DNA of 64,000 nucleotides from a virus, in IMG/VR virus record IMGVR_UViG_3300032308_002246, positions 32,001 through 96,000 of that record; one strand, 5' to 3'. The notes beneath the pieces were generated by a model. It saw only the letters and a list, made by a program, of their open reading frames with translations, ran no database searches and was not told the origin of the DNA. Made by a program: the position numbers and the translations under genes. Below, piece by piece: positions 18,217 through 62,651 of the stretch (the stretch's first letter is position 1; every line of letters starts with the position of its first letter).

Positions 18217-21200
18217 CTATCTTCCTCTATCAAAATTTGCAAAGTCAAAGAGTTTAGGGTCCATTACTTCCAGCTGCTCATTAATTGCTCTTCTAGCAAT
18301 CATGATTGGGTTCATTGGGTCATTGGTAGTGTCGTAAACAAATAGCTCATCAAAGAATGGGTCTAGGTTTGGCAACTGGAAGTAAAGCGTCCTGTTTATA
18401 GCTGGAGGAATCCAGTCAGGAACCATTCTTCCGGTTCTTTCAAATCTTTCTGCATTTCTTTCCAGAATTACATCATCTGGCGAGAAGAAGTAGTGAGCAA
18501 CAACTTTATATCCAGCATTTTTCCAGTTGATGAGGTCTCTATTGCCGTCATTAAACTGACCGCTTGTATCATAAGTCATATCTACGCCCTCTGAAGCAGC
18601 CCTCCTCATTAGTGAGGCGGCCAATGCACGAGACTCTGTGTGGGTAAGGTTGGCAGCATCAGGTAGACGCTTTTCAAACCAGTAACGTGCTTCAGGCATA
18701 ATCATTTTTGCATCATCTGGGTCAACAACTACTGCATCTTCGTATGAAGGTATTCCTGCAAAGTTTGTATTTCTAGCATTTGTTTTGCCGGTTCCAGAAG
18801 CTCCGCCAAGCACATAAACAGTTGGCTGTTCATTGCCACTATCAAACTCAGGTTTTGACACTCTTGCAATGCTGTTTTCTATGTAAGGAACCCAGAGGCC
18901 GTTGTATCTGTCATCAGAAACTCTGTTGCCATTAAGTCTATATTTTTGCGATGTAGAAATTGGGTCTGATGAATTCAGTTCATCAATTGAATATCCAGAC
19001 TGGTATCCAAGCAGGTCGAGGTCTTCTGCAAGAGACTTATCAACTATTGGTCGTGATGGTTTTGCAACCTTTCCAACAGGACCATCTGGATTCCAGGAGT
19101 CACTCTTGAAATCAACGCCCCAAGGCATCAAAGGATGCGGCATCTTGTCATTTGGCAAGAATCTTTCAGCATCTTTTTCAGCTCGTATTTTATTTATTCT
19201 TGCAATTATTCTCTGGTTTCTTATTCTTTGTGCTTTTGCAAGTATGTTCAGTCTCATTGCTAATGACATTCTCAGGTCGCTAAATGGGTCAGCAGAATTT
19301 GAGCCTTCATAATCCTTGCCCATTTTTGCTACAGCTCTTCTCAACCATTCTGCATGTCCAAATGCGATTGGGTACTTGCCTCTTGCTATATCTTCAAGTG
19401 GAACCCAATTTGCAGCTTTCGCATCTGAAGCAGCCGTTACATTTGAATCCCATGGAACAACAAACAAGCCGGCACCAACTCGTGCGCCCTTAACAAATCG
19501 TGGGTCCCAGTCTGGTGATGTAATAATTCCAAGTGGTTTGGCTTCAATTGATGACTCAAGGTCAATTCCAACCTCTTCCAAACCCTCTCTTGTAGCAGTG
19601 GTCATGTAGTCTTCGTTTCCGTCTCGCAATCCTCCAACAAGGGCTTTTGCGTTTGTAAACGGTCCACTCTTTCTGTCAATCATAAGCACTTCAGCTGAGC
19701 GCAAGTCGTTATTGTTCATTCTTATGATTACAGCATCTGAAGCTTGTGTCAATTTGTTTTTAGCAAGAGACCAGTTGTTAGTAGACCATGTAACATCCTC
19801 ATCATCTCCAGATGTGAGGTTTTTACTAATGTCCAGCGGTGAGTAGTTTGACTGTAGATAAGCCGCTCTCCTCAAGTTGTCCGAAGCTATGTCTCGAGGT
19901 CCGTAAACAGTTTCGTAGTACTCGTCCTGTGGTTGCATCTCAGGCATTCCATAGATACCTTCAAATGACTTAATCAAACCATCAAATGTCGACATACTTC
20001 CGGTTGGGGAATCATCGTTGAACAGTTCAATGTGCTTGTCGTTGTTGAATATTGATTTTGCTTTGGCTACCAGGTCTGTGTAATTCTTATAGTCTTTACC
20101 AGAGCGGTCAACCATTGCCTCTATGAGATTTGAACGATAGGCAATCGCCCCAACTATGTCCGATGGCTCTTCTCCTATTTCTCCGTAAATGAATGAAGAG
20201 TTGGTAGGGAGGATTGAGTCTGACGCAAAAGGGGATGCGCCTTCACGGAAGTCGTACGCTGGAATACTCCTGTTAGCCACACCAGATACATACAGGTCCA
20301 TCAACCTTTGTAGTTCTTGTACTTGCTCTGAGTCGGAAGCGGTGTTGTTCCTGATTGCTGGGTTTCTATCTCTGTTGAACCACAGGTTGGATGAGTTGTT
20401 TTCAGCTCTTAGTGCTTCAAGCTCTCTATCTTTTTGCAAAATTGCGTCCCTAGCAATACCCATTTTCCCAACTGGTCCACTCTCATTTGGGAAACGACCC
20501 ATTGAGAATCTCTTTAGAGTAGAAATGCTCTCAGCAAGAAGCTCTGCTTTGCTAGTTCCAAGAGATTGAAGAATATTGGAAAGACCATCATCTCGTCCGT
20601 CTTCTGTTTTTGCAATAGCTGCAATTAAATGCTCTGTGTCAATGATGTTTTCACCACGATTGAGTGCCTCACGAACTGAGTTAATCATTGTTTTTCTAGC
20701 ACCAAAACTTAATGAAATTACTTTTTCTGCGTTTTCATCTAGGTTTTGGGTTGTTGCGTTATTGACTGCATTACGCAAGTCGTTTACATCGATTCCAAGT
20801 CTGTTAAGAACTCTTCCGGCGATGCTTTGATTTACAGATTTCTTGCCAATGTTTTCTCTAGCAAGACCCAAAAGAAGATGCGGTATGGTTACCTCGCTGG
20901 ACTTGCCAAGTTTGGCTTCTTCGTGTGCGTGCACAACCGAAAGGATATTTGGCTTTGTGTATCTGTTTAGAGCCATTTTCCCTATAGGTCCATCATTAGG
21001 TGGAACAATTCTATTGTCACCAAGCTCTGATGATTCGGTAAAGAAGTTCTTTGGTATTTCATCCTCTGATGAATAGTATTCGTATGTTAAATCTTCATAT
21101 CCATTGTCATTCAACCAAGAATCAAATGTTTTTAGATTTTTAAACTTTCGTGGAGATGAAAATGTTGAATCTGGAGCCGCATCAATTACTTCACGCTTGT

Positions 21201-24200
21201 ATCGAGGCATCAAGGAGTTTCTTTGTGTTCTCTTGTCTTCTGCTTTTATGAACTGTGCAATTTTGTCAAAAGCATCACCAACACTAATTGTTGAATCAAA
21301 AAAGTTTAAGTATTCGCCAAATTTTTCAGCTATTGCAGACGATGCAAAATCTCGGATGAATGAAAAAGCCTGATTTTCGTCGTTTGTATTCAACGCATCA
21401 ATAACTTTCATTGTGAGACCATCAATTGTGTCAGCTATTTCTTCTGCACCAATTTCCTGCGCAAAACCATTCAAAGCACCAAGAATTTCTATGGCTCTTA
21501 TTGAGTCATTGCGATTTGCTCTTAGTTGCTCTATTTGTTCAAAAACTGAATCCATTGGCGTCATTACTTCATTTAATGCACCCTGCGTTCTTCTTAGATT
21601 ATTTATTGCAGTTGTATTTTTTTGTGATTCTACGTATCTCTGATATGTTGCTCTGGCGTCTTCATCAAGAGAATTTATTTTTTCTTCTGTGAAAGCATTA
21701 ATTTTTTCAAATCTTTCTGCTTGTCGCGGCGTAAGCATTGAAGCTATATCACCTGACATCACAGGGTATGCATCTGAGGAATTAGACCAATTTACCCATG
21801 GGAAGTATGAGGACATTGTCATATTTTCTGACACTCGTGTTTGATTTTCTTTAAGAGCATCAACTTCCGACCGCAAGAAACCGCTTAACTGAGAATAAGC
21901 CTTTGCAAGAGCAAGTTCATCTTTATTTAGAGATACTCCATCCGAAAGAGTAATTCCGAAAAGCTGTCTTAGCATTGCCGAAGCATTTTCGTCCGGGGAA
22001 TCAGAAAGAGATTCAGTAAGAGCTTTTACATACTCAGAGAACTCGGCTCCTGAATCCATTGCAAGAATATCTTTTGTTGTAATTGGACTATCTGTAGATA
22101 TCTGGCCGTTTTCGTCCTGCCACCAATAAACATCTGGAGATGTCTCGTATTGTTCATACAGAGAATCAACTTCTGCTTCAGTCCCTGGTCTGGCAAACCA
22201 TTTAACATTTTTGTTATATGGTCTTGAGTCTTCAAATCCACTGTAAACAATGTCTGGGCCATATATTGTGAACTTGCCATCAGCTGCTCTTCTAGGAGCA
22301 ACAGAAAGCATGTCAAAAGAGTCATCTGACATCTTTGAGTTAGCAGAAGAAAACTCTATTGCGTCTGCAAAAAGAGCACCCATCGTGTCAGCGAGGTCTT
22401 TTACAGAGTCATACCATCTTTCGGTTTGCTCAGGATTGAGCTGTACAAATTTATCGCCTTTTTCTCTAGCTATATCCTGAAGAACAAATGGTGAACCAAC
22501 TTCATCGTATATTGATTTGAATATTCTGTCCAAATACCACCCAAGCATTTGGTCGTCTGCAACCGTTCTGCCCATGAAGTCAGAAATTGGATACATTGCG
22601 CGGTTGACATCGTTTACCGCGTCAAGCATCATGGAGTGAACGGCAGACATTACCTGTGCGGCTTTGAATTCACGTGTTGTGGCTGTTCTCATCCACTCTT
22701 TTATTCTATTTCTTGAATCCTCGTTTAGTCCAATTCGTTCAAGCTCTGAGTCTCTCGACATCAAACGAACTGCGTCATTAATCCAGTTTGAGTCTCCAGG
22801 TACAAAACCAGCAGTGGTTCTGCCAAGAGCTCTGTAAATCATCATTATGTCTTTAGCAATTGGACTATCAAGCGATGTAATTGATTCGGCATCAATAAAG
22901 CCTGATTCATACTCTATTGCGTCATCTTCGCTTTCAGAATATCCATCTACTCCAAAAGCTTCTGTTATTTCTTGCTCCAAAAGCATTTGGTTATATGATT
23001 CACTCATTATTTTTCGCATTGACCTAATTAGTCCAGGGAATTGACCCTCTTGAATCATGTCAGATACGGATTTGGTTTTGTCATTTTCCAACTCGGGGAA
23101 TACGCTTGGCGCATCCTCATCTGGACCACCTGCAGCTTCGTAAAGCTGTCCACCGAAAGCATGGTATTTGAGCAAATCACCAAGACCGGAGAACCATTTA
23201 ACAAGTGCTTCTTGGTCTTTTGGTTCTCCATCAGAGAACTTACGTGCTTCAACTGGTCCGTAGAACGGGTTTCCAACTATAACTGGCGGTGAATCTGGGA
23301 GGAAAACAGTAACTTCTGGATTGTCTGAGTCCCATTCTGGTGTTGGGCCATTTGACTGAGAAACATCACTTGGTATTCTGCGACTAGCCATTGCCCCTGC
23401 AGGACCAGAAGCCATTGCCTCATATGCATTTCTAAACGATTGTCTTGGCTGTGCGTTTTCTTCCGATGGCTGAATTATTGAGTTCAAAGCAGCCGCGCCT
23501 ATTCCATACTTGCGCATCGCCTGTCTCTTTGACATTCCTGATGCAATGTCATCAACAATTGCTTTTCTGTTTTTCGCAATCCATTCTTGTGAGCCAACAG
23601 AAGATGGAGCTACACCTGACTTCCTAAGCTCGTGAAGCAGATTTCTTACAGTATTTGGGTTAAATCCAGTAGTGTCAACAATATCTGATTCGTTATATCC
23701 TGCCTTAGCAAAGGATGCAACAACATCTCTTCTTGACTCCGGCATTATTGAAGACATAAACTTTGATGCTTCATCAATGCTTGGGTTCTTTTTCCCAACC
23801 TGCTTGTAGAATTCTTCGAGCTTGCCATTTCTTGCAAGGTCTCTAGCAGTTGCCATTTTAGGGTTAATCGTTCGGCCAAGAGCGCTTGATATTTCAGAAT
23901 CAGTTTGTCCAGATTCAATTGATTCAAATACTGGTTTCATTTCCGACCAGTTGCCAGCAATCCAGAGCAGGTCTCCGTCTGGTCCAACTTCTTGTTCTGA
24001 AGCAGCGTAAGCAGGCCATATATTTTCGGGATTTTTACCTATTGAATGGGCGAGCTTCCTAGCTGCATTTACAGAAAGATTAAACTTTCCACTTCTAAGC
24101 TTCTTTGCTGTAGCCGGTGATGTATTTAAAAATACAGCAAAGTTTTCATCGCTTATATTTTGTGAATTTGGAATAGCCTCAATAAATTTTGATGTTGGCA

Positions 24201-33200: not shown

Positions 33201-34254
33201 CTTCTAAATCAGATGACCTGAGCTTTTGTAGAAATAGTGATGAAAGTTGTTCAAATTCAGTGTCCCACCATTCTGTGGCTAATTTTGCGGTTTCTTCATC
33301 AAAAAGTTGCCTTGCAAGCCCCTCTCGTCCAATGATTGTTTTGAGTTTTGCAAAATTGGCTTCGTCTACTTCTGCTTTTGTTTTTTCAATATATCTTTCG
33401 TAGAAACCAGACCCTTCTGCGTCTGGTCCGAATATTACTTCTAGTATTTTTTTTCTTAATTCTGAATCTTCTGGGAGGTCAATCTCTCTTGGGACTTCGC
33501 TCATGTAGGAGCCGTATTTTCTTTCACCTACTGACTTGTGTTTCAAAGAAACTGCACCTATAGGGCCACTTGGTTTTTCTTCAGTCGCTTTCGGTGCTGG
33601 GCGAAGCCTATTTGACTCTTTTGGAGCTCTTGGTCTTTCTGTGGCCGATGCTTTGGGTCTTGGGGTTTTATCAATGCTTACTTCTGGCAGTGGCGGGGTT
33701 ATTCTTGGCTGTGGTTTAACAACATCCTGAAGGTTGGTAGTTGCTGCATCGGTAGTAGCTTCAATCTGATTGCCCCCTGGGGTAGGGTCTGGAATTCCGC
33801 GGCCAAAATTTACTTCAGCTACACCCTCAAGAACCAACTTGTCTTTATCTGCGTCGACAGCCGTATTCGGGTCCATATTTCTTGGAGCAACACCAATTGG
33901 CTGACCAACATTTGGTCCAAGGGCTTTTTCTTCTAGTTCTTTTTTGTTGATTACACGTCTTACTCTCTGAGCAAAATCTCTGTCTTGGTTTCTTCTACCA
34001 AGAGGGCTCGCCCCAGTGACTCTTCTATAGTCAGACTCGTTGGTGCATGGCATCCACAGGTATCCGCCAGTGGTTGAGTTGTACTGTCTGACCCCAATGC
34101 ATCCAAGCTGTCTTGCCCTTTGCCTAGCTGATTCTTTATCTGTAAATGAGTCAATAGAGCCTGGTCTTATTGCTCTTGAGCCAAAGCTAAGAGACTTTTC
34201 TTGGTTCCCATTTTCTATTGGGCAACAGTCGCCCTGCTCAAAATCGTTGGTCAT
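18217..34254 (-). CDS. Giant 5345-aa multidomain (polyvalent) protein in the head module
   Basis: N-terminal LGC.G...WMPC (DUF3721-like) and DPTPG module, HTH cluster (~23480-25070), ClpC N-domain (~20490-20976), NUDIX (~19340-19740, GGLRDGNEDYMTTATREGLEEVG), C-terminal zeta-toxin-like P-loop kinase (GGASGTGKT at 18781-18807); 14 linker motifs. Confidence 0.85.
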   Translation of the reverse strand: MTNDFEQGDCCPIENGNQEKSLSFGSRAIRPGSIDSFTDKESARQRARQLGCIGVRQYNSTTGGYLWMPCTNESDYRRVTGASPLGRRNQDRDFAQRVRRVINKKELEEKALGPNVGQPIGVAPRNMDPNTAVDADKDKLVLEGVAEVNFGRGIPDPTPGGNQIEATTDAATTNLQDVVKPQPRITPPLPEVSIDKTPRPKASATERPRAPKESNRLRPAPKATEEKPSGPIGAVSLKHKSVGERKYGSYMSEVPREIDLPEDSELRKKILEVIFGPDAEGSGFYERYIEKTKAEVDEANFAKLKTIIGREGLARQLFDEETAKLATEWWDTEFEQLSSLFLQKLRSSDLEEIDFDAALNEYQKIASISIEDGLNARMSALTGLYPNYGNHNVPSNIGFDYATQMVDFLKSGDSLASFGAKAIVESMQDATIEYDFPSYRVFGEKDEEGRLTDLTRHQMFRSLVGFAEKTRELSDEQAGTQLDKSLLGSVFNAFAMSMFMRGGMPTFNEAYETYLPNLAANEDSSVAMLRFAEIADALDTALVDHKEALRRARSEVIASNPELALDKTQERLSQETDLNLPIENSEFVKNIDSRDNVKITSRLAVLSKLSDDELIGFAEELGRRGIARRKNQAISFLDEMQPLSLDGAFETAQRITGLSNGKINFTDLAGALYTQNFFDGWMNRDGVSQTWESYLKFSKNSRTYNALKKMTPEKRAKFLGLDEATTEMLMDSAQENLLRWTDDEEVISADLLQTLKDMNMLLKDTEFESDSKNSTPHQNHAMQFGNSITKAVSHPIEQFISALNLRDMQLEEIWENTHTNSTKLAIDGLLGDSTEGAKNTAFKIASLLLPETRVSQIGEREDAFGINDAGVIASRRLKLNRYDQKGRSFIDLAIVADAQDNSGKQTVLERHEHLINSLGIIGTAIRTLGAYGDEINTIATNVKQIKNSVASEILEENGESFSELVDNYMDAAPFAWGPSGAMANRSGFEYPRERRQSGSWSPLANYAQSSMYLDYKNRKNRRNLDIANSVDANQNEVFEEISELMLTLRERVSNNTLKLSDYAKSYDQKTGVLSLDFYNPRKPTSALGDSPGLIKSITMLLAVAAANARNNRERSQAREILNELLDWAELYLPEYSKIRPRNDKALSDMLENGPIGKIGIEQAYAAIENKKHKTLKGRLRDFENKSQTIVFDSIADRNPASKLRELESELDEIVSEGWMNNRVLAGLFETISGHMDDAFEEGISERTRNRMRPIFDGFANAMRAKYDKDYAEAFGMINLDAIQRKRRRIAARSAQEVSDSSPVGRMGAGYSPQRLQLAENNKDSHLTEEFKKRWADIDESNITANEILNSKNPSLTMFDGNNLAFYWKDENSRLKYLQTANKRKLGKGYVGLPSSFGISSSFQKVKELNDSGLLEKIGLYPTKLEKHPFFVTFHGDKLVKFAGTPSDINADANSMKQILGAIHPELNPETFETVYQSWIRNPYMTISSSNGNEVGVRFGLDNDDTKMRNELRKRVRDIYDFVSRSTGGKVPKSQYPLETESGETAEIEFPATMKGLANDFFRRIQPSIANRGHSLESLSNVFNQNAEELALPETLNREQIGKFLRENFPEVLKSLKPEASKLDGITDNEVSEAVEIVSMLNDGTRVLKFGEIKELLSTKENGYEIWSNDAVDEVINTVNNYTAESGGSQFIETSAVGSMSSNTGRPSENLRDEFEAARTLRSIQRAKDMTPEQENAFRRAQWARQQLENIVEEDWVRFGPFDLTNAYRPIAEKQSGSLSFHIKSLGDRAVMEMFEEISSKFPDASNEESVKNFESRIRTALSKAARGDEITPRYPESWPPEMLDSDLNEILSPKEMAVVAQVEDQLDRETLVSMLGGELGDKDETRQEILRIVESLPKVTVPASPSSRDLIKTPEQMSQDILIEAFDGSPSSAKELVDSMSEQQLDALRKSFSVSDYTKNSFDNQNLQMQRASLIRQTSVAIAKLSQTEEGRNKIRQYVGEVADTLTDGANELLRKIQNSEIEEDDAYESLSRYVEDASSTQPISRLWFNAAAPLFSANNETSALLKASENDKKDRVNRLFAEIALSEESPEKVKNQLQRFVESNPVDGIGTREVYVASTPAGTTQSALEKKQSELISKYDGTSESAKEIIDSLTDEQIRKLWAKYIFPSLYRIGGTGPGSLIRKRSQKAAAERTQQALNRLGEKFKKSIYGLGGFVDSEGYSADDVNMLISDAISESFGVSSLENLTPEDRREYVSLVDYFLSGGRSLLGKGEYTEALRKLNSEKTPKAVQRRRIQRIDDEISAIVSDAGDKMDDAVSDLLSQYRNMSPEEIETVRKAEEEFEANQRRIRDIRAGRISPEDDFADAPDDWDDDEFSDSPVGSMARKPSGLTQKAQALLEAALNPHRKHDEQAKNEFGYIEQAAIDALGVRGINTPDGFFYTSPDEIAIDPQIEETLVNEINGLVDESFENTEFRKLKNGQLIYAPQRLTGYDAVSVQGIGADESNEQDSGVYNPEMDEDESLRPSNFNPDRHPIASALNDRYESFIGGNNNYFTRDWFHENGRYGTEAEALLRSINDEPGLVDMDKVLIYVQNQSGWLEGEDLEESIKAAESIRVPVVPQRYRSSGNGARYGMSSFSSQRRLSATEKMELDKQKKIARSKAKSSKALRDGWLKDMTSGLMLDESEIGLRDGYYPDAVIAGIKTALRENDQIDNLDSVLIAARNAANARSQAESRVKALAKVLEITQNSGDLISEIYSIDNAINELDDAEERTSRQYQERIRAQILSRVSATSSIIKAREMFIVGQKEKLRAGAINPRDYLISIQQWDSEYGPQILQMQAEIQSFSTKAEASSRARQDIIEQKNELMSRAAELKDMVADSAQYMNVLMAQRAVNESMKNLADNNGDGVIGSGPVGNMKKIGYLFGDSGAINGFDEYADNSSNLYTPFNISMTKKEKALSSVMLSQLRSVNGIQTIDLVDNRDVTARQRIESFRQNIQSSPVGAVRTLSNELTDMPTTLKNVLQNEYNRSVGKMIASEKENDIRNLINATYSSEGMPSRTSQILNEIDNGADVYSLARKNNIPVTEIFSIAAIRESLLASVKYDVQKLTLGQVADKYGFDKTRLTNAVNAYKNADKFRKSYAKMQQRFNELIPTNTLASAYSILNEEFPEITKTRGMGSAYKLVALNDETLGSVKERMARAMRLFADFPNMSPRVAAGLTGIHQDSAKSIYMALVNDGDRPSRPARRAPQNYSALPNDWDYMTYGERQDWLNSDEAKQRMGEQARNFALRQNAEDIESSGSMDGPYGAMAAALKKADLDKNIYGTNSSDENGVSPIFAWRGVKDSDLIRTGFLPTSKFIEAIPNSQNISDENFAVFLNTSPATAKKLRSGKFNLSVNAARKLAHSIGKNPENIWPAYAASEQEVGPDGDLLWIAGNWSEMKPVFESIESGQTDSEISSALGRTINPKMATARDLARNGKLEEFYKQVGKKNPSIDEASKFMSSIMPESRRDVVASFAKAGYNESDIVDTTGFNPNTVRNLLHELRKSGVAPSSVGSQEWIAKNRKAIVDDIASGMSKRQAMRKYGIGAAALNSIIQPSEENAQPRQSFRNAYEAMASGPAGAMASRRIPSDVSQSNGPTPEWDSDNPEVTVFLPDSPPVIVGNPFYGPVEARKFSDGEPKDQEALVKWFSGLGDLLKYHAFGGQLYEAAGGPDEDAPSVFPELENDKTKSVSDMIQEGQFPGLIRSMRKIMSESYNQMLLEQEITEAFGVDGYSESEDDAIEYESGFIDAESITSLDSPIAKDIMMIYRALGRTTAGFVPGDSNWINDAVRLMSRDSELERIGLNEDSRNRIKEWMRTATTREFKAAQVMSAVHSMMLDAVNDVNRAMYPISDFMGRTVADDQMLGWYLDRIFKSIYDEVGSPFVLQDIAREKGDKFVQLNPEQTERWYDSVKDLADTMGALFADAIEFSSANSKMSDDSFDMLSVAPRRAADGKFTIYGPDIVYSGFEDSRPYNKNVKWFARPGTEAEVDSLYEQYETSPDVYWWQDENGQISTDSPITTKDILAMDSGAEFSEYVKALTESLSDSPDENASAMLRQLFGITLSDGVSLNKDELALAKAYSQLSGFLRSEVDALKENQTRVSENMTMSSYFPWVNWSNSSDAYPVMSGDIASMLTPRQAERFEKINAFTEEKINSLDEDARATYQRYVESQKNTTAINNLRRTQGALNEVMTPMDSVFEQIEQLRANRNDSIRAIEILGALNGFAQEIGAEEIADTIDGLTMKVIDALNTNDENQAFSFIRDFASSAIAEKFGEYLNFFDSTISVGDAFDKIAQFIKAEDKRTQRNSLMPRYKREVIDAAPDSTFSSPRKFKNLKTFDSWLNDNGYEDLTYEYYSSEDEIPKNFFTESSELGDNRIVPPNDGPIGKMALNRYTKPNILSVVHAHEEAKLGKSSEVTIPHLLLGLARENIGKKSVNQSIAGRVLNRLGIDVNDLRNAVNNATTQNLDENAEKVISLSFGARKTMINSVREALNRGENIIDTEHLIAAIAKTEDGRDDGLSNILQSLGTSKAELLAESISTLKRFSMGRFPNESGPVGKMGIARDAILQKDRELEALRAENNSSNLWFNRDRNPAIRNNTASDSEQVQELQRLMDLYVSGVANRSIPAYDFREGASPFASDSILPTNSSFIYGEIGEEPSDIVGAIAYRSNLIEAMVDRSGKDYKNYTDLVAKAKSIFNNDKHIELFNDDSPTGSMSTFDGLIKSFEGIYGMPEMQPQDEYYETVYGPRDIASDNLRRAAYLQSNYSPLDISKNLTSGDDEDVTWSTNNWSLAKNKLTQASDAVIIRMNNNDLRSAEVLMIDRKSGPFTNAKALVGGLRDGNEDYMTTATREGLEEVGIDLESSIEAKPLGIITSPDWDPRFVKGARVGAGLFVVPWDSNVTAASDAKAANWVPLEDIARGKYPIAFGHAEWLRRAVAKMGKDYEGSNSADPFSDLRMSLAMRLNILAKAQRIRNQRIIARINKIRAEKDAERFLPNDKMPHPLMPWGVDFKSDSWNPDGPVGKVAKPSRPIVDKSLAEDLDLLGYQSGYSIDELNSSDPISTSQKYRLNGNRVSDDRYNGLWVPYIENSIARVSKPEFDSGNEQPTVYVLGGASGTGKTNARNTNFAGIPSYEDAVVVDPDDAKMIMPEARYWFEKRLPDAANLTHTESRALAASLMRRAASEGVDMTYDTSGQFNDGNRDLINWKNAGYKVVAHYFFSPDDVILERNAERFERTGRMVPDWIPPAINRTLYFQLPNLDPFFDELFVYDTTNDPMNPIMIARRAINEQLEVMDPKLFDFANFDRGR

Positions 34255-34319: not shown

Positions 34320-35153
34320 CTATTCAGGCATAAGCCCCTTATGGGATTTGATTTTTCTGGTTGACGGAACCCTGTGCTCGGTGTCAATTAATTTTGACAA
34401 AATCGGTGCAGAAACAATCCCACCGCCGTCAAGCGAAGATATTCCAACCGGGCCGCGCTCGTTGAGTTTTTCCCAGTTCGCACCACGGACTTTTCTTTTT
34501 GCTTTCCGTGGCGAGCCATTGTCTATTGATTCAAGACGTTCAACTATCTTTGATTTGACCAAGATGATTGGTTGATGAGACTTTGTTGAATTTTTTCTAG
34601 CCCTAGCCGCAGCTTCTGTATTTCTGACAAACTGTTGACCAGAAGCGCTACCTTTTCTTTTCTTATTGTTCGTAGCTCTTTTTTGTCCCGGGGTAAGTTT
34701 TGCCCAAGCTTTTGCTGGCAGGTATCTTCTTGTTCCACCGGTTCTTATTGCTGGTTTCCCGTCAGATGTAGTCCATTTTTCTTTAGTCCATTTAGAAAGA
34801 GACCTTTGTTTTTTGTTTTTGCCGCCTTTATAACCGCCACCTCGTTTTTTGTACTCTTGAGCTACAAGTTGGGCTTTTCTGGCAGACCACTGACCAGGTT
34901 TCCCACCTCTTGAGCCGGCCATGATGCGATTCTTTATTTCTTCTCTTAATCCAGGCTTTGTATAGTTTGAAGATTTTTCCTCTAACTCTGATTTCTTCAA
35001 AAATGATTCATTCTCTGCTTCGTTGCTCAGCCTTTGGAGTGTCTGCATATCGGCGCACGGCATCCATTCGCCTTTTTCATTTTTGTGCGCTCCACGGCAC
35101 CCCATGTATCTAGCAATCTTTAAAACTTGTTTTTTTCTGTCGTCGTCGTTCAT
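34320..35153 (-). CDS. Basic protein with DUF3721-like and DUF5872-like domains
   Basis: MGCRGAH...WMPC; NYTKPGLRE.IK.RIMAGS.GGKPGQWSARKAQL...Y...GGGY; SL.KWT.EKW...RYLP. Confidence 0.7.
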   Translation of the reverse strand: MNDDDRKKQVLKIARYMGCRGAHKNEKGEWMPCADMQTLQRLSNEAENESFLKKSELEEKSSNYTKPGLREEIKNRIMAGSRGGKPGQWSARKAQLVAQEYKKRGGGYKGGKNKKQRSLSKWTKEKWTTSDGKPAIRTGGTRRYLPAKAWAKLTPGQKRATNNKKRKGSASGQQFVRNTEAAARARKNSTKSHQPIILVKSKIVERLESIDNGSPRKAKRKVRGANWEKLNERGPVGISSLDGGGIVSAPILSKLIDTEHRVPSTRKIKSHKGLMPE

Positions 35154-48307: not shown

Positions 48308-50866
48308 TTACTGCGAAGGAGACTCTTCGTAGCCGTCAATAATTGAACCAATTCTTGATGTAAGTTTTTCCCCTGTTGTCGACCAACTGTATGTCTTATT
48401 ATTTTTAAAATCTGTATATGTGTAACCAAATGGATTTGAGCGAATACTTGGGTCGTCAATGTTTTTGTCAACTTCAAGCGTTTTCATTACAAGGTCGTAT
48501 CCGGCGGCCCGTATTTTCTTCCTTGTTTTTTCTGAACTTTCGGCAATGTTTTCAGATAGTAGTCTGAGCATTTTTACAGCATTTTCTCTGTTTAGTGAGA
48601 TTCTGTTTGACAAGTAACCATTGTTTATCAACCCAAAATCATTTGCCATAAAAGCAAATCCAAACCAGTCTCGCATCTCTGTGTCAGTCATTGGGCCTTC
48701 TGGGACTCCGTCTGAGCCGTTACTCAAAACACCTGACCCAAGAAGCGAGTTGACCTTGTGAACTGGGTTTGAAAGAGACCCTTTTCCTCCGGAAATTTGC
48801 TCCCACAAAGGCACTCCTGTAGTTTCTGATAGATATCCAGGAAAATTGTTTTCCAATGTTTTGTTGGACATTGAACCAATCGGACCAGGCTCAATAAAAG
48901 GTGCAACGCCGGTTTTTGATTTTGAACCACTAAAGCTGACTTGTCTTTCCTCTAGAAGCTTGAAGAAGTTTTTTAAGTCTTCATAAGCAGGGAACGCTTG
49001 TGCATAGTCTGAATCCTTGCCCAATCTTTCAATCATTTGCTCAGCAACAGATTCTCTTTCGTCTTGCGAGATAGACCAAAGTAGCGGTGGATTTTGTCCT
49101 ATTTCAATTTTCCACCCATCAAGAGTTGATGTTATCTTTACACCGTTGTTTTTGCTGATTTTTTTGTTTGAACCGCTAAAGTAATTTTCAAAATTGTTAT
49201 AATTTATTAGTTCTTCATCTACGCCATTTATCCCCATGAAGTAGATGCCGGCTCTGCGCATATCAAAGGCCTTATATTGTTCTTTTGCTGGATTTTTGCT
49301 ATCGCCCTTTAAGACCAACATCATGTAGTCAGCCGGTGTTCTGCCCAATAGTCCATACCCAGTTTTTTCTAGCAGTTCATTTTTTTTGAAGTTTTCATCA
49401 AGATGATTTTCAATTAATGGCTGTATGTCATTAGCCATTAACCAAAAATCAAACCAGTCAACTGGCTCTCCGTCAGTAAAACTGCTAAATCCAAACACAT
49501 CGCCGTATTGATTGTTTTTCAAAGACTGTCCGTCAGCGTCTGCTCCCTTTGGGCTAGATGAAATCCAGGAATGAAGTGGGTTTGCCGAAATTGATGTTCC
49601 AAATTTTTTTCTTTGGTTCACAACTCCATTTGCAAGGTCGGTATTAAGAAGTTGGTTCAAAGATGAAATTTTGCCAACAGGACTATTTTGTTCTTGTATT
49701 TCGTACTTGAGTTGCTTTATGTTATTTACGTCTCCAGGGTTATCCCAGTAGTCATTGTGGTTAAACTTAATCCCACCATCCGCCAGTGATTGCTGCATAA
49801 GCAATAGGGATTCAAACTCTTTTTTCAGTCCTAGAATTTGGGCGGACCTCGTCATCTTCCATATTCTCGTGGGGTAGGCCAACCAAGGGTCTTGTCCAGC
49901 ATCCCAATTTATGTCTTCAATATACGTGGATGTTTCCACATCCCATCCAAGGGCAAGAGCATTTATTTTTATTGCCTCTGCGACATTTTTCAAAAACCTT
50001 CTATTTTTTTTGAGTCTTTTCAGCGGCTTTCCAGCGATATTGTATTTTTCTCCATAAGCACCACTGCCTCTATCGATTGGGAACATCCACCAGTCGTAGT
50101 GGTCGTTATGTATTTTGCTCCATTGAGAAGAATCTGCTAGCTGTCTGTGTTTGGCTAGTTCAAGGGCTTGGTGGGTTATTACAAACCTGTCACCACCGTA
50201 TGGGGTTGTGTTTATAAATCTTGCTCTTGGAATTGTGCTTTTAGGCAGTATCGAAGACGGTCTTTGGTAATTTGAAAGTATGTCTGACTGTGGTTCAAAG
50301 TCTTCCTGGCTATCCATGGTTTCGTAAAAGTTTGGGGGAGGAAACTCGTACGACTCTTCAAAGTTTGGGTCTAGACCAGCATCCTCAAGATATGCACGCC
50401 AGGCATCGTTGTAGTCAATCTCAAGTTCTTCTTCTTCAAAATCAGTCAAGTTATTTCCAACTTCAAGAGAACTCATATCGTCAAATTCAAAATCGTCAAA
50501 TAGTTCATCTTGCCCAAAAAGCGATGGTTGAGATTGGTCGTCTATATCAAACTCGGCATCAGCTACTGGTTCATCTTTTGAAACTGCACGGTTTACAAAA
50601 TCTCTAGCTTTTCTTCTTTTTGACCTATTGTTCTCCATCTGCCCGACTGGACCGCCTGGGGTTGGGTCAATCACTCCACGTCCACGATTTATGAACGGAA
50701 CACCCTCAAGAACATAGGGGTCGTTGTCTGCGTTTCGTGCAGTACTTGGGTCAAGATTTCTTCCAGCAGAACCTATGGGCATGCCAATAGCTTTAACGCC
50801 TAAGTTGGCATTAATTTTTCTATTTGCTCTGTTTCCAGATTCTCTGATTTCAGTTGGTTCGGCCAT
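48308..50866 (-). CDS. 852-aa protein with DPTPG module and OGFr-N/DUF1810-like domain
   Basis: KAIG...DP.TA.NADND..VLEG.P.INRGRG..DPTPG; HNDHYDWWMFPI...RIWKMTRSAQILG; 3 linker motifs. Confidence 0.7.
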   Translation of the reverse strand: MAEPTEIRESGNRANRKINANLGVKAIGMPIGSAGRNLDPSTARNADNDPYVLEGVPFINRGRGVIDPTPGGPVGQMENNRSKRRKARDFVNRAVSKDEPVADAEFDIDDQSQPSLFGQDELFDDFEFDDMSSLEVGNNLTDFEEEELEIDYNDAWRAYLEDAGLDPNFEESYEFPPPNFYETMDSQEDFEPQSDILSNYQRPSSILPKSTIPRARFINTTPYGGDRFVITHQALELAKHRQLADSSQWSKIHNDHYDWWMFPIDRGSGAYGEKYNIAGKPLKRLKKNRRFLKNVAEAIKINALALGWDVETSTYIEDINWDAGQDPWLAYPTRIWKMTRSAQILGLKKEFESLLLMQQSLADGGIKFNHNDYWDNPGDVNNIKQLKYEIQEQNSPVGKISSLNQLLNTDLANGVVNQRKKFGTSISANPLHSWISSSPKGADADGQSLKNNQYGDVFGFSSFTDGEPVDWFDFWLMANDIQPLIENHLDENFKKNELLEKTGYGLLGRTPADYMMLVLKGDSKNPAKEQYKAFDMRRAGIYFMGINGVDEELINYNNFENYFSGSNKKISKNNGVKITSTLDGWKIEIGQNPPLLWSISQDERESVAEQMIERLGKDSDYAQAFPAYEDLKNFFKLLEERQVSFSGSKSKTGVAPFIEPGPIGSMSNKTLENNFPGYLSETTGVPLWEQISGGKGSLSNPVHKVNSLLGSGVLSNGSDGVPEGPMTDTEMRDWFGFAFMANDFGLINNGYLSNRISLNRENAVKMLRLLSENIAESSEKTRKKIRAAGYDLVMKTLEVDKNIDDPSIRSNPFGYTYTDFKNNKTYSWSTTGEKLTSRIGSIIDGYEESPSQ

Positions 50867-50880
50867 GCCGCACCACCGAA

Positions 50881-52573: not shown

Positions 52574-52577
52574 AAAA

Positions 52578-53078
52578 CTATTTACTTCTGTTTTTCCATT
52601 TTTCCGGAATCATGTCTTGCCGCCCCAAAGATATGGCTCTTTTTATTATGTGCTTTTTTGCTCTGGCCTTGTTTTTTGCTCGACCATAAGCATAAATTGC
52701 GTTCTCTAAATCTGATTCATTTTCAATTGGGTATGAGCCATCAGGTAATGCCATCCCGGTTTTTGCAAGCTTTTCACGTGATTCTTCGCTGAACAATCTT
52801 TTTTCATTTAAGTAAGAAAGCTCGTTCAATTTATTCACAAGTTCGTCAACCAAAAGTGGACCCATTGATTTAGCGTCAACAAGCACTACGCCTTTTTCGT
52901 TTGCAGATGACTCAAATCCGTATTTTTCTAGAATTTGGTCAACTTCTGTTTTGAGATTGAATATCTCCGACAATTCACTTTGGATAACAATTTCTTCTTG
53001 AAGCGTATTGTCAAGAGATTCAAGACTTTTTATTGACATTTCATATTTGTTTGTTTGAGTTGAAGTATATATTTTCAT
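52578..53078 (-). CDS. Hypothetical protein with DUF6582-like C-terminal domain
   Basis: REKLAKTGMALPDGSYPIENESDLENAIYAYGRAK...HIIKRAISLG..DMIPEKW, paralogous to the C-terminus of the 499-aa protein. Confidence 0.7.
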   Translation of the reverse strand: MKIYTSTQTNKYEMSIKSLESLDNTLQEEIVIQSELSEIFNLKTEVDQILEKYGFESSANEKGVVLVDAKSMGPLLVDELVNKLNELSYLNEKRLFSEESREKLAKTGMALPDGSYPIENESDLENAIYAYGRAKNKARAKKHIIKRAISLGRQDMIPEKWKNRSK

Positions 53079-53084
53079 ATGAAA

Positions 53085-56000: not shown

Positions 56001-59000
56001 ACCCCTTCTGAGCGCAGTTGTCTGAGCAACGATATCAGCAGTTCTTTTCTGCCTCTCTGTTTGTCTTTCCTTTGGTCTGGCTTGCTCCTCACGTGGTGGA
56101 GTTCTTTCTTGCTGACCGGGCTGTTCCTCTCTTGGTCTTCTGTTGCCTGAATCCTCTTCAGTGGGTCTGCTAGTTGATTCATTGCGAGGTCTGCGTTCAC
56201 CACGTGGTTCTCTGCGTGGTCTTCTTTGACCCGTCTCGTCTTGCGCCTCCGCCTCTGGTTTTGGTTTCTCAGACTTTCTTCCGTACATTCTGTCAGTTCT
56301 AAAATTCTTTTCCTTACCGTCTTTTTCATCAATGCCGACGATGTATGCGCCAAGAAGTTCGCCGTCTCTGCCAAAACGCTCTTCGTATCTTGGTTCGGTA
56401 ACTGTTCTTTTTTCTGGTCTGTCTGCATCTGGTTTTAGATATTCAAAAGAAATTCCAAGACCGGAATCGCTTGCATCATTTACTGCTTTTTTGATGTCTG
56501 ATTCGGTGAAGTTTTTGCCAAGTATTATTTCGGTATCTGTTTCAATAACAGGAGCAGATGAGTCAGAGCCAAGACCATAAAGGCCAAGCTTTTCATATTC
56601 CGCTTTTATCTCTTGTGCAGTTACTGTTTCCCCAGCCTTTGTCCTTATGTCTGCTTCAATTTCCCATGGCTTTGCCGAAATGAATACGCCATCTGTTGCT
56701 GGATGTCTTCCTCTTTGGGTTCTAATCTTTTCTGTAGTTTCATCAAAGATTTCACCAAGTTCTTCTTGTGGCCAGTCTTCATATGAGAACAGGTCCCCAG
56801 CTACTGGGTGATTCCATTTGACCAGATTGCCATTGTCGTCTTCTGCAACCAAAAATACTGGACCAGTAGAGTTTGAACCAACATTCTTGTGTTGATACTT
56901 AGTTATCTCTCCGGTCAACTTGTTTACATATGTAGAAACAAATTTTCCATCGTCTTCAACTTCTGATTTGTCTATGGCCGGTTCGCTAACTCCAACTGTT
57001 GGAGAGCTTGGTCTTGTAGAAGTTTGTCCAGTTTGTCTGGCAGCACGATTTTCTGCCATTCTTTGTTTTGTTAGGTTTCGTAGTCTGTCCCACTGCTCAG
57101 GCATCAAGCCACCATCAATGTCGTACCTATACAGAATTTTTTCAATCTCTGCATCATCCTGTTCAAGCATTCGTGCAGCATTTACTAAACGTTTTGCATC
57201 TTCTGGGTCTGCGCCAAGCAGTTCTCCAGTTTCCTTATTTACTTTAAGTACAGCTTCTTCTCCTGGCGCAAGAGTGTATCCACCATCTCCGCTTTCGAAC
57301 TTGTCAATCAATGACGATGCGTAAGACCACTGTCTATCTGAAAGACCGCCATTTTTTGCGTACTGGTAGTACATGTCGCTTAGAACTGAATAGTTCTTTT
57401 CTGGGCCAGTAAGGTCTTTTTTATCTTTTGAGTTTACTGTTGCTCTAAGAGCATCAAAATCTGGACTATTTCTAAGCGTGTGAATTTTTTCTATCACCGA
57501 AGGACCGAAGTCTGGAGTGTTTGGACTTTTAGTAACAGACAAGTCATCGCTACCTTGGAATCGCCACTTCCATGAGTCCATGGTCCAGAATTTTTCATCA
57601 GGTCCACTTTCAAGTCTTCTTAACTTTTTATTTCTGGCTACTCGTTTTGCATTTCTTTCATCCTCATCCCAGCTCTCAGACATATCAGAAGTTGCAAAAA
57701 CTGTACCGCCGAGCCTGAAGTAGGAAGGCTCGCCATCGTATCCAGCGCGGTCATTCCAAGAAACAACTCTCAAACCTTCTCTTGGAGAAGTTTGAATTGG
57801 TATAGGACGCAATTCTTCAGTTCCATCTGAGTTAAGGAATAAACCTTGTGGAAACATTTCATCGTCAAGGAACATTCCACGCTCAGCAGCTCTAGCCATT
57901 GCCTGAGCCTCAGTTTGAGTAACAAATGAATACTCTGGAGTATCAACAACCATGTAGTTGTATCCACCATCTTCTGCCAAAAGTTTTCTGCCCAACATTT
58001 CGTGCAGTTCTGGTTGGTTGAATCCACGCACTCTGCGGAGGTATGGCTTCTCCTGCATTGGAACACCGTCGGCAAGGTCTTCTGTAAAGTCGTATTCTTC
58101 TACTATTCCATCGTCTGCATTGGCATAAATTCGTACTTTTTTGTTCTGTCGAATCGCCATTGCACCAATCGGACCATCTGAAAGGTATTCGTTTATTTCA
58201 TTGTCTAGTTCTGTCTTGCCTATGTATTTTCTATACAGGCTGCCGTCGCTTGCATCTGCTTCAACAAAAAATCCTTCGTCGTCAACTCCGTATCTGGTGT
58301 TTGAAACGGATGGCGGCTTTGACGTTGAGCCATCTGCTTTTCTTAGAGTGCGCAAAGACTTTGTCAACCTTGAATCAACATCGTCAATTCTTAAATTGAA
58401 ATCTTTTGCAATATCTGCATTTGTTGCGCCGTAGAGTTTTTGAGACATTATGTCTCTATCTGTTCCATCAAGCAGGTAACCGTGTTCTCTCATCAGGTAG
58501 CGCATCTCAGAGCGCTCTGGGGTCTCTGTAGCAGAGAGAATGGTTGCTTGTGCTTTTACAATCTTTACAACATCATTTCTTGAAATATCGTTGTCTTTTG
58601 CTATTTGCTCAATTGATGAATTTCCAAAACTTGAGTAAACATTTCTCATCAGCTTTTCTGGGTATGAACTCTCTTCATTGTTGTCATTGCTGATGATTCT
58701 GTTTATTGCTTTTACTGCACCAGAAGGACCGTCTGGAGCGTTGATGCCGGAATAGGGTTCTCCGGTTACCGAGAAGTTACTCAAAAAGCTGTTTATTATG
58801 TTTGGAAGATACTCGTCAAGCTCTGCGTCATCAGAGTCGTTTTGTTTTAAGTAGCTCTTCTTACGACCGGTTGAGTCAAAAACTTCAGATGCAAAACCAT
58901 CCGGAAGAGCTCTTTCATACGAAGACATTCTGCCAACAGGGCCTGAGCCCAAACCTCTTTTGGCAATTTCTTTTCTTACTTCTTCTAATGTGTCTTCTCC

Positions 59001-62000
59001 AAGATTTGTTAGTGCAACTGCATAGTTGATTTCTTCTTGCAATTCAGAAACTTTTTCTAAATCTCTTTCAATTCTTGCAATTTTCTTACGCTCAAGTGCG
59101 TCCATGATGTCGTCTTTTATTTCTACAACATACTTATCAAACTTTTGCAGATTTTTTAAAAGTGATTCATCGCTGAGCTTTGGAATTTCTTCTTTAATTT
59201 TTCTGCCAGCTATAGAAGAAATTTTTCTCATTTCTTCTGCTGTATCTATGGAGTCAAGTAAATCAATATCTTCTTTTGTTAGTTCGTCAATCATTGCTCT
59301 CTGTAGAGAGTCGGCAAGCGCATTGTTGGCTTCATCCGAGCCCCTTGGGTACCCAGCAATAGTGTCTGTTTCAGGAGTTAGTTCAAGCCCACTTAGTCTT
59401 GGTCGCTCTGGTGATGGTGCTGCGTCTAGTCCTGTCCCACGAAGTCTTGGGCGCTCAGTCGGTGCTCCTGGTGTTATTGCAGTTCCACGCAATCTAGGTC
59501 TCTCTGCAGGGGTTTCTGTCGTTAAACCAGTCCCACGAAGTCGTGGTCTTTCTGGTGATGATTCTGGTGGAGAAACTCTTATTCTTGGTCTTTCTGTAGG
59601 TGTTTCTGCAGATGTTGTCGGTGGAGAAACTCTTATTCTTGGTCTTTCAATTCTTGATGCAGGGCTTCCGTCGCCACGGTCAAAAACTACACCATCTTCT
59701 CCATCATCAATTGAATCAAAAGATTCATCAAAACCATCAAAATCAACAAAGGAGTCTCCTGTCGACATTCTTCCAACAGGTGCGCTGTAGAAAATCCTGC
59801 TAAAAGGTTTATCTTTTAGAGTCCTATCTTGACCTTTTAAATCGTCGACAGACTCGGCTGCCCTTATTGACTCCGTCCATTTTGCATTGGCCATTGAGCC
59901 AACAGGCCCATTGTCAATCACCATGGAGTCTTGCAACTTTCTCATTGCAATCTGTTCTTGTCTTCTTACAGTTTGTCTATCTGTGCCAAGTCTTGCTGCG
60001 GCTTCTTGGAGAGTCTCCCCATCAAGTCTTCTCTTCATCAAATCTGTTTGTTCGTCGGTAAGAGTTGAAGCAGGGTCATCAAGCATTCTTCTTGTTACTC
60101 TGTTTGGACTGTTCTCATCCATGCCACGAAGTTTTGACATGTGTCTAAGCTCAAGCTGTCTTGCTTTTTGTCTTGAAACTTTGAATCTCGAAGCCGCTTC
60201 TTCAAGTGAAATTCCATCATTTTCTCTTGCAAGGAATATTTGTCGTCCAAGTTTTTCTTCTCTAAGAAGTCTTTTTTCTCTTGCTGTAAGAATCGAGTCG
60301 TTTGGCAAGGAAGACATTGCTCCACGTGGGGAATCAACATCAATTACTCCTGCTTCTTCAGGTCTCATTACATATGGGAGGTCTCTGTTATTTCTTCTTC
60401 CCATTTCATTTATGTATCTCTCAACGGTTCTAGGAGAAATTTTAAACTTACGGGCTACTTGTTCATAAGCTCTTTTTGTATTTTTATCTTTTGATACAGT
60501 ATTGAATTCATTGAATACTTTTTCCGCAGTATCCATGTCAACTGGTCGTTGGTCTTGTGGGAATCTTCTTCCATCAGCCATGCGACCTACAGGACCACTA
60601 GATGCTCTCTGTGGGACTCTTTGTGGAACTGGTGTTCTAGTTGGAACAGGAACTCTCTCAGGTTCTCTCTGTGGCACTCGTTCAGGAACTCGTTGCGGTT
60701 CTCTCTGTGGAACACGCTCAGGAACTCTTTCTGGTTTTCTTTCAGGAACAGTTGCTGGTCTTGCTGGTTTAATTGCTGGCTTGGCTGGTTGTACTTCTGG
60801 AATTTCTTCCGGAACTTCAACTGGTCTTGGGACAGCAGGCATGTCTGCTTCGCCAGGTCTCTTGGCGCGTCTTGGTTTAGATACGCCTCTCTTGCCTCGA
60901 GACCTTGGTGCTTTTGGGATATCAAAATCACTCCCAGGAGTTGGGTCAACTACGCCACGCCCTCTGTTGATAGTTGGAATTCCTTCAAGAACATATAGGT
61001 CGTTATCAGCGTTACGGGCAGTAAACGCATTCATATTTCTTGGTGTTCTCCCAATTGCATTACCAATAGCTTTTTGTTCAAAAGAATCCAATACATTTGA
61101 TAAAGCTTTATAAGCAGCAACACTGACTTTGTCAATGTCTGGAATAACAATTCCGTTTTCTAAAACTTTTACATCAAATGAATGGTATTCAGCAATTGTG
61201 TTGATTATTTCAAAAGCTTCAATTTTCTCTGCATTATCTTCTGGCTCCAAGAAAAGATGTTCGCCTCTATTTGCAGACTTAAACTCTTCAAGTGTGCTTA
61301 GATGATTTGGAACCGAGCATAATGTTTCACCTTTTGCGCAATCGTCACAACATGCTTCATGTGGAACAGCAGCCGAAGACATTGCGTCGTAAAGACTTCC
61401 ATTTGTTTGTGGCATGGATATGACCATTGCACTAGGTGTTCCACTGTCACCGATACGACTTCCGTTTGAATTATTTGTAGGTATATAGACGGTTTCTGGT
61501 TTTACTTGTTGCGCCGTTCCGAACATAAACTCATCACCATCAAAGTGGTAAGCGACTCTTAGTGTCTCAACAGCCTGACCGGCACCCATCTCAAAAATTG
61601 CAATGTCGTTATCGGCGTTAACTAGTCTTACCGCTCCGCCAAAGTGTGAAGCAAGTGCTCTTGTCAGGTCAGCCGCTCTTCCAACTACTGAGTTTTCTGA
61701 ACTGTTCATTGCCTCGTAAATTGCGCTTACATGGTTTTTTGTTTCCGAGCTTTCGCTGTCGTCTTTTTTCTTTGTATTGCTATAACGCTCAAGGAGTCTT
61801 CTTCCTTTTGCAGCAAGTTTTGCAGCGTCTTCCATATTCTTTGGAACTGGCTCACCCCATGCAGCCGCCGAAAGAGCAAGTCTTGTTGGTTCTCCATTTG
61901 GCTTTTTCATTGGGCCAGATGGGTTTGTAAAAAATCTTGTGAGAAATGAACCCTTGCGGCGCATCTTTTCTGGTGTGTCAGCTGGACCCTTAACGCCAGG

Positions 62001-62651: not shown

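Follow-up and report, generated by a model that had tools for sequence, protein, structure and literature searches.

Giant head-module proteins of an uncultured phage are punctuated by a lineage-specific junction peptide, a candidate site for a trans-acting protease

Introduction

Which factor, if any, reads a short peptide that recurs at one domain joint after another in several giant proteins encoded beside the capsid gene of a phage? The question is raised by IMG/VR virus record IMGVR_UViG_3300032308_002246, a single 173,962-bp contig with 43.8% G+C that is evidently a phage genome, of which we analyzed bases 32001-96000 (64,000 nt in all, hereafter the window). On the minus strand, which carries every window feature given below unless stated otherwise, the head module encodes four large proteins that share the peptide: a cargo polyprotein of 5345 amino acids (aa), P0001 (18217..34254), immediately upstream of the major capsid gene; a 3190-aa polyprotein, P0002 (53085..62657), that is led by an HK97-type S78 prohead protease domain; the 1748-aa P0317 (42993..48239), which contains two conserved HExxH (zincin-like) modules; and an 852-aa polyprotein (48308..50866). 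A preliminary description of the window had offered two models for the peptide, namely that it is a protease site which releases about 30 effector units or that it is a repeated capsid-docking peptide. The first of these came out as the best-supported reading, if indirectly. We estimate at roughly 60% the probability that these are capsid-cargo polyproteins of the polyvalent type, in which a single phage factor acting in trans recognizes the junction peptide; this factor is most likely a protease, with the S78 domain as the best candidate. Cleavage and its scissile bond, the reader's identity, and the packaging and injection of the chains are points that we only infer.

A repeated peptide confined to four head-module proteins

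We found the peptide to be strongly enriched in these four proteins. All 33 copies that had been counted by hand were recovered where they had been placed, each given position being the low end of an 18-nt motif (33550-33567 in P0001, for example, or 60579-60596 in P0002). A search with the regular expression [GSA][PA]xGx[MIVL] returned 35 matches (15 in P0001, 13 in P0002, 4 in P0317, and 3 in the 852-aa protein), the two beyond the hand count being GPDGDL in P0001 and GPDGSV in P0317. By comparison, 1000 composition-preserving shuffles yielded 4.8 ± 2.1 matches with a maximum of 13, and for the strict form [GS]PxGxM the observed count of 21 compared to 0.15 in shuffles. Ten other minus-strand open reading frames (ORFs) of the head module contained zero motifs. 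Upon scanning the 174 non-nested ORFs of the 174-kb genome with a position-specific scoring matrix, which had been trained on the sites of the same four proteins, we obtained matches of at least 14 bits solely in these four, and zero such matches in shuffled proteomes; weak matches elsewhere in the genome were not enriched (3, versus 3.7 expected). In this genome, the motif is restricted to head-module proteins.

The consensus of the sites reads (S/D)-(G/S)-P-(V/I)-G-(A/K/S/R)-M-(S/A/G). The flanking preferences that had been described, D/S/N before the motif and A/S/G after it, were borne out by the counts: the preceding residue is S at 12, D at 10, and N at 3 of the 35 sites, and the following residue is S at 10, A at 9, and G at 7.

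While most of the 33 motifs are credible as joints, not all of them are. The P0001 matches at residues 3303 (DGPYGAM, part of the hand count) and 3424 (GPDGDL) form conserved parts of folded domains in every orthologue and do not switch with the lineage code described below, and judging from these alignments they are probably not joints. GPDGSV in P0317 is doubtful as a joint as well. This leaves approximately 32 credible joints and 36 modules over the four proteins. In P0001, 13 credible motifs delimit 14 modules (33550-33567, 31309-31326, 30781-30798, 30337-30354, 29158-29175, 27103-27120, 25504-25521, 25243-25260, 23389-23406, 20974-20991, 20461-20478, 19993-20010, and 19066-19083). P0002 carries its S78 domain, a DUF6321 domain, a mid domain, and a leader at its N-terminal end, followed by 13 motifs that delimit 14 modules (60579-60596, 60315-60332, 59892-59909, 59766-59783, 58926-58943, 58713-58730, 58158-58175, 55569-55586, 55233-55250, 54849-54866, 54603-54620, 53895-53912, and 53589-53606). 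Three credible motifs occur in P0317 (47304-47321, 45243-45260, and 45069-45086), where they are kept in 10-13 close homologues, and three in the 852-aa protein (50636-50653, 49667-49684, and 48869-48886), which they divide into four modules.

The peptide lies in linkers between folded domains

P0001 and P0002 each combine many unrelated, independently folding domains, as seen from Pfam matches and, for the C-terminal part of P0001, from an AlphaFold 2 (AF2) model. Pfam families in P0001 comprise DUF3721, Clp_N, NUDIX, and Zeta_toxin, and those in P0002 comprise Peptidase_S78 (residues 30-173), DUF6321 (196-267), and Sigma70_r4 (865-909), with several helix-turn-helix (HTH) or sigma-70 region 4 modules. 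That the motif brackets the ClpC N-domain of P0001 and separates its NUDIX domain from its zeta kinase, as had been proposed, agrees with the Pfam boundaries: Clp_N spans residues 4443-4500 between motifs at 4422 and 4593, and the motif at 5058 lies between NUDIX (4841-4972) and Zeta_toxin (5137-5279).

The AF2 model, which covers P0001 residues 4300-5345 and was built from a 75-row alignment, reached a mean predicted local distance difference test (pLDDT) score of 79.5, with the ClpC-N, helical, NUDIX, and zeta-kinase domains confidently folded. The score fell below 50 in four long internal segments (model residues 93-129, 288-303, 441-476, and 751-769), and each of these held one of the four motifs tested (model residues 123-128, 294-299, 450-455, and 759-764). 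Burial of motifs in folded domains, which had been set beforehand as an observation that would speak against the proposal, was thus not seen at any of the four sites. An orthologue alignment of the 20 residues flanking the sites showed no clear difference in conservation from background, and the linker location hence rests on the AF2 model of four sites together with the Pfam domain boundaries.

Three of the modules so delimited resemble known proteins. The ClpC-N module (P0001 residues 4428-4592; 20479..20973) has a Pfam Clp_N match and a confident AF2 fold with disordered linkers on both sides, and its closest structure in Foldseek is the N-terminal domain (NTD) of Mycobacterium tuberculosis ClpC1 (template modeling score 0.85-0.87, 26-28% identity); such a free-standing module could be a decoy or an adaptor mimic for the host Clp system. 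The NUDIX module (residues 4755-5057; 19084..19992), supported by Pfam and AF2, matches ADP-ribose pyrophosphatase-type Nudix proteins in Foldseek. The last module (residues 5064-5345; 18220..19065) is a zeta-toxin-like P-loop kinase (Pfam Zeta_toxin, E = 6e-17), with Foldseek matches to zeta/PezT and to AvrRxo1. Pro/Arg-rich tandem repeats, namely ERPR(I/L)R... and PERVPQREP..., occupy spacers of P0002, both where these separate modules and where one leads from the leader to the first junction motif (residues ~995-1100 and ~640-685; approximately 59358-59675 and 60600-60740).

All sites change together between lineages while the joints stay in place

Comparison with orthologues showed that the peptide differs between lineages in a concerted manner. 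An exhaustive profile search for P0001 orthologues yielded P0155-P0160, with overall identities of 82, 36, 30, 28, 27, and 28%, respectively. At the GP(V/I)GxM joints of P0001, the orthologues at 27-36% identity carry other peptides, namely xPSGSM in P0156, (G/E)P(T/V)ASM in P0157, xEAGM in P0158, SDTGxM in P0159, and (S/G)(D/E)SGxM in P0160, and each orthologue keeps its own version throughout, with a constant Met that is followed by S, A, or G. Between 7 and 12 copies per orthologue fall within 12 alignment columns of a P0001 site, whereas less than one would be expected. Orthologues of P0002 behave likewise (GA[ST]GxM in P0011, [DQ]SGAM in P0012, GPT[AS]SM in P0014, and PxA[SG]M in P0019). 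Modules are, moreover, lost and gained at the motif: residues 952-1246 of P0002 are missing in P0006 exactly from motif to motif, and P0008 has gained a 100-aa insert with a motif at both ends. Because all sites of a genome change in concert while the joints stay in place, a single co-evolving reader is indicated, and these sequence comparisons point to one trans-acting reader of the motif.

The same behavior extends to a wider family. When we searched long proteins with the first 700 residues of P0002, at least 280 metagenomic proteins (1754-5583 aa) came up that have an N-terminal S78 domain at 67-97% identity. Their cargo is varied and includes UvrD helicases, ArdC-N together with MPTase-PolyVal, pentapeptide repeats, RNase T, WYL, and sigma-70 region 4 domains. 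Among the 121 proteins examined for codes by de novo pattern counting, most have a punctuating peptide of their own, and GPxGxM is confined to the closest relatives. Other codes include RxGLAS(R/S), with 16 copies in locus L001, RGM(A/S/R)S, with 13 copies in L002, as well as GF(A/S)S, G(L/M)RS, and (R)(L/F)SSG(R). The gene order of terminase, portal, and protease fusion is syntenic in the fetched loci L001-L005, and the capsid proteins are 72-95% identical to that of this phage among the best 80 of 373 IMG/VR stretches. Upon mapping the motif class onto a quick FastTree tree of the protease domain, we counted 15 changes of class, compared to ~60 for shuffled labels. On the evidence of this tree, the code is a heritable trait of lineages that was switched several times.

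These observations bear on the notion that the motif has no reader at all and is instead a flexible hinge, a by-product of cassette recombination at a shared linker, or an internal translation start made up of a Shine-Dalgarno-like Gly codon and ATG. Cassette exchange does happen at the motif, the motif Met could in principle be an internal start, and GGG is over-used for the second Gly of the motif (its fourth position), at 13 of the 35 sites versus 11% of the Gly codons in the same genes. As had been stated in the preliminary description, conservation nonetheless acts on the protein: the motif uses all four Gly codons and both families of Ser codons (TCN and AGY), and since its codons vary so freely, it offers no shared DNA for recombination and is conserved at the level of the peptide. 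A passive hinge would leave the concerted switching of sites between lineages unexplained. We rejected the internal-start and Shine-Dalgarno idea on account of the varied codons, of several window sites that end in V, I, or L (encoded GTT, ATT, ATA, or CTG), and of the codes without Met in many other lineages, such as GLAS and LSSG. Overall, we consider the absence of any reader very improbable indeed. Separately, the Pro of the motif prefers CCT, and the codon bias at these positions may be a codon-context effect.

Extending the argument from this genome to its relatives, it is possible, although we propose it only tentatively, that they form a large uncultured phage group, probably with freshwater Actinobacteria as hosts, that has a heritable and re-programmable junction code, in which one short peptide per lineage would mark all joints of the cargo polyproteins and the fused protease would have co-evolved to read it, with some 30 sites switching together and cassettes being exchanged at them.

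A leader in the first fragment

Three of the four motif proteins share a further element, a conserved leader of ~55 aa with the pattern ...N-P-x-TARDAD-x-D-x-LVLEG-x-P-x-IN-x-GRGV-x-DPTPG, which we refer to as the DPTPG leader. Identified by blastp, alignment, and a hidden Markov model (HMM), it occurs once in P0001 (residues 92-161; 33772..33981), once in P0002 (residues 529-598; 60864..61073), where a Pro-rich spacer separates it from the first junction motif, and once in the 852-aa protein (residues 8-72; 50651..50845), where it leads directly into the first motif. It always lies in the first fragment, ahead of the first motif, and it is absent from the 1748-aa protein. The HMM, built from 20 copies, matched the three proteins of this genome and no others (E values of 1e-25 to 1e-31); protease fusions of related lineages contain the leader as well. 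By analogy with the capsid targeting sequence of T4, we infer that the leader may be the part that targets these chains to the procapsid.

Candidate readers of the junction peptide

Taken together, the linker location of the motif, its lineage-specific conservation in position, the motif-bounded insertions and deletions, the presence of a small residue behind Met, and the fusion of an S78 protease to one of the chains indirectly support reading the motif as a cut site. The form of the site, with five to six specified residues, then Met (Leu or Phe in other codes) and a small residue, suggests a protease in particular. Sites in viral polyproteins typically have an extended non-prime side that is followed by a small S, A, or G residue, while assemblin (A↓S) and HK97 (K↓S; arrows mark the scissile bond) as a rule have Ser at P1'. 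In the mechanism that we propose, the peptide (S/D)-(G/S)-P-(V/I)-G-x-M-(S/A/G) in the disordered linker at each joint would serve as the recognition site, and the protease would cut at or just after Met, which would leave each module with a small Ser, Ala, or Gly at its N terminus. The DPTPG leader in the first fragment would target the chains to the procapsid; once loaded there, they would be cut into ~36 modules upon activation of the protease, and the modules would stay in the head alongside the DNA until their delivery to the next host.

The reader in this scheme would be the S78 prohead protease at the N terminus of P0002 (62139..62570; PF04586, E = 5e-11, 43.4 bits versus a cut-off of 21). 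We rank it first since it is the sole component common to all lineages examined and is fused to one of the substrates. Identity of the domain is 67-97% among 45 homologues drawn from every motif class, and H68 and S132, which by analogy would be the catalytic residues, are invariant in all 45. Between motif classes, 10-35 core positions differ. Residue 127, five before the invariant Ser132, tracks the class, being L or M in most Met classes (16 of 17), E in 27 of 27 proteins of the LSSG class, mostly Q in GLAS, GFxS, and FAS, and H in GMxS, a correlation that is descriptive only and confounded by ancestry. A complex prediction for the S78 domain with a 35-residue motif peptide scored 0.00, which we counted neither for nor against binding.

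We also asked whether the maturation junction of the capsid protein carries the lineage code. This protein has an N-terminal delta-like region of ~100 aa and a presumed maturation junction, ...ERRM↓SVGDAF, the position of which is set by analogy with HK97. This RRM↓S junction has Met-Ser in common with the motif and nothing beyond that. Elsewhere, the capsid junctions read GFK↓S in lineages with the I(S/T)GxM code and QLSSREIK↓S in the LSSG class, the latter being suggestive, though it may simply be inherited.

Several of these observations weigh against the S78 domain as the reader. Its high conservation spans lineages with very different codes; the presumed capsid junction, of the form x↓[ST][ILV]G[DEQ]xF, shows no clear trace of the lineage code, with a P1 residue (K, M, Y, Q, and others) that changes independently of it; and a profile of the S78 domain found no solved homologue by sequence for mapping a substrate groove. 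In addition, zincin-like HExxH modules are strongly enriched in this protein family and occur in each head module examined, so that another protease is possible.

This last point leads to the alternative that a second protease, either a zincin-like module of P0317 or a host protease, reads the cut site in the head or after injection, with the S78 domain maturing the capsid only. The two HExxH motifs of P0317 (HELNH, 46206-46220; HEFGH, 44088-44102) show no variation among 12 homologues, proteins of the protease-fusion family contain ~14 times as many HExxH motifs as expected (29 versus 2.1), and at least one giant head protein with HExxH occurs in each of the five fetched loci. Relatives also carry MPTase-PolyVal domains, which were proposed to process polyvalent proteins (PMC5512222), and a second protease would fit a code that shifts although neither the S78 domain nor the capsid junction shifts with it. 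The zincin fold of P0317 is, however, putative: an AF2 model of the part with both motifs (residues 560-1748, 13-row alignment) reached a pLDDT of 38.9, too low to be usable, an ESM Atlas look-up for the second module scored below 0.9, and the protein has no Pfam or PHROGs match. A word-limited search turned up homologues of P0317 in the GPxGxM clade alone (identities of 68% and above), in contrast to the S78 domain that all lineages examined share. As the tail proteins of this genome lack the motif, nothing requires a reader outside the head. We regard a second protease as the less likely reading, if a serious rival, and the S78 domain as the better candidate.

The other model of the preliminary description holds that the motif stays uncut and, at each of its copies, docks the chain to the inner surface of the capsid, much as encapsulin cargo-loading peptides bind to a shell of HK97 fold. 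The shell of this phage does have the HK97 fold, and the P-V-G-S-M/L of the motif resembles the T-V-G-S-L that was quoted for encapsulins; the linker location and the concerted lineage change would also fit co-evolution with a binding groove. Encapsulin cargo-loading peptides are, however, typically terminal, few, and not cut, whereas the motif here has 3-13 internal copies per protein, one per domain joint and none of them terminal. The resemblance between the two short Gly/hydrophobic peptides is superficial. Modules gained and lost from motif to motif and the small residue after Met suit processing better than docking, and the separate leader, with its single copy per protein, would lend itself more naturally to targeting. 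The capsid protein, furthermore, is 72-95% identical across lineages with very different codes. Hence, docking appears quite improbable to us, and cleavage of the junction peptide remains the preferred reading. If the peptide were a docking signal after all, this phage would be the first tailed one with a loading system of the encapsulin type.

Relation to known systems

The statement of the preliminary description that no phage system like this had been described went too far, because polyvalent proteins come close to it, as does the way in which prohead proteases process packaged proteins of T4, phiKZ, and SPN3US. Polyvalent proteins were described in phages and conjugative elements by Iyer, Burroughs, Anand, de Souza, and Aravind in 2017, who proposed that embedded peptidases process them (PMC5512222). 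Like them, the proteins studied here are giant multi-domain proteins encoded beside virion genes, for which packaging and delivery with the DNA are predicted. Polyvalent proteins have a variable set of conflict-related domains. The relatives of this phage have ArdC-N, MPTase-PolyVal, UvrD helicase, pentapeptide repeats, and RNase T, and the proteins of the window itself contain NUDIX, zeta kinase, Clp_N, HTH, and two HExxH modules, while most of their modules match no family. Assemblin-like peptidases were mentioned there as rare and at C-termini only, and a junction peptide was not described, the word "linker" occurring 0 times in the text (PMC5512222). By contrast, the protease here is N-terminal in at least 280 proteins, and there is a lineage code at which cassettes are exchanged.

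The head proteases of T4 and phiKZ cut at x-x-E sites, which are the same in the capsid protein. Packaged proteins are processed by T4 gp21, which acts on the internal proteins IPI-III and Alt, with a capsid targeting sequence, and by gp175/gp245 in phiKZ and SPN3US (PMC5694885, PMC10052503, PMC7411985). The cargo in those phages has an N-terminal targeting part, for which the leader would be the counterpart here, and a short consensus that sometimes occurs at several sites, and it is delivered to the host. Unlike in those systems, a chain here can hold as many as 13 sites, the code is not clearly seen at the capsid junction, and it differs between close lineages. Their proteases also belong to other MEROPS families, whereas the one here is of the HK97-type S78 family and is fused to cargo.

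With the polyprotein sites of eukaryotic RNA viruses and with those of herpesvirus assemblin (A↓S), the motif has in common repeated short sites, an extended non-prime side, and a small S, A, or G after the cut, which for the motif is a presumed one. Those sites co-evolve with the viral protease, and assemblin has the same fold as phage prohead proteases. The products differ, however, and here would be the accessory cargo modules of a tailed double-stranded DNA (dsDNA) phage rather than replication or structural proteins. A literature search, which most subscription journals lay outside of, returned no N-terminal S78 protease heading polyproteins of 2-5 thousand residues, no explicit repeated junction peptide, and no lineage-specific concerted change of such a peptide. 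Packaged and processed multi-domain effectors are therefore already known, while the N-terminal S78 domain, the repeated junction peptide, and its concerted change between lineages were not found described.

If cleavage does occur, this phage group would pack dozens of enzymes and regulators in finished form, produced as a small number of giant chains and set free through a simple peptide code particular to each lineage. This arsenal would include sigma-factor-like HTH proteins, a look-alike of the ClpC1 N-domain, a NUDIX hydrolase, a zeta-type kinase, and zincins, to which relatives would add ArdC, helicases, and DNA mimics. It would provide a testable rule for the processing of polyvalent proteins, a question since 2017, and for studies of structure and function it would mark off hundreds of unknown cargo modules at their natural limits. 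Proteases that are close relatives but recognize different short sites could, furthermore, serve as orthogonal tools. Should the junction code have co-evolved with the fused protease, tailed dsDNA phages would use a polyprotein strategy of the RNA-virus type and would offer natural orthogonal pairs of protease and site.

Genome context and neighboring genes

The polyprotein genes sit between the portal-MuF gene and the major capsid gene. In the direction of transcription on the minus strand, the head module encodes the portal-MuF fusion, P0002, two ORFs of 166 and 499 aa, the 852-aa protein, P0317, ORFs of 153, 201, 687, 1466, and 277 aa, and P0001, which the major capsid protein follows directly. 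The portal-MuF ORF (747 aa in full; Pfam Phage_Mu_F) runs past the window end, with its C-terminal part at 62742..64000, and its homologue in locus L004 has Phage_portal plus Phage_Mu_F domains. The 440-aa major capsid protein of HK97 fold (16550..17872; Pfam Phage_capsid, E = 2e-43) is 48% identical to capsid proteins of Gordonia and Brevibacterium phages, its nearest cultured relatives, and the S78 domain shows 39-43% identity to annotated capsid maturation proteases from phages of the same two genera. Given these relatives and the ClpC-N-like module with its nearest match in Mycobacterium ClpC1, an actinobacterial host is a reasonable guess.

We found no Pfam or PHROGs match for the 852-, 1466-, 687-, 499-, and 166-aa proteins, as for P0317. 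The 499-aa (50881-52380) and 166-aa (52578-53078) proteins, encoded directly downstream of the protease fusion, have a C-terminal domain of ~84 residues in common (40% identity, E = 8e-17), and the motif is absent from both. At their position, relatives encode an acidic, scaffold-like protein of 461-495 aa. In two of these, the acidic 461/465-aa proteins that follow the protease fusion in L001 (19733-21118) and L002 (16798-18195), the sequence K(K/R)RLAS occurs at approximately residue 153, at the end of a very acidic N-terminal half; it resembles the GLAS or GMAS code of the respective genome and may be a processing site in the scaffold-like protein.

DUF3721 occurs twice in the window, in P0001 (residues 38-73) and in the 277-aa protein just upstream of it (34320-35153), which has further matches to DUF5872 and to two PHROGs of unknown function. 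Adjoining the head module, the plus strand of window positions 1-14300 holds a cluster of modification-type enzymes, with a ribonucleotide reductase fragment, a 2-oxoglutarate (2OG)-Fe(II) oxygenase, an AurF-like N-oxygenase, an S-adenosylmethionine (SAM) methyltransferase, a concanavalin-like lectin-domain protein, a glycosyltransferase, and a PhyH dioxygenase.

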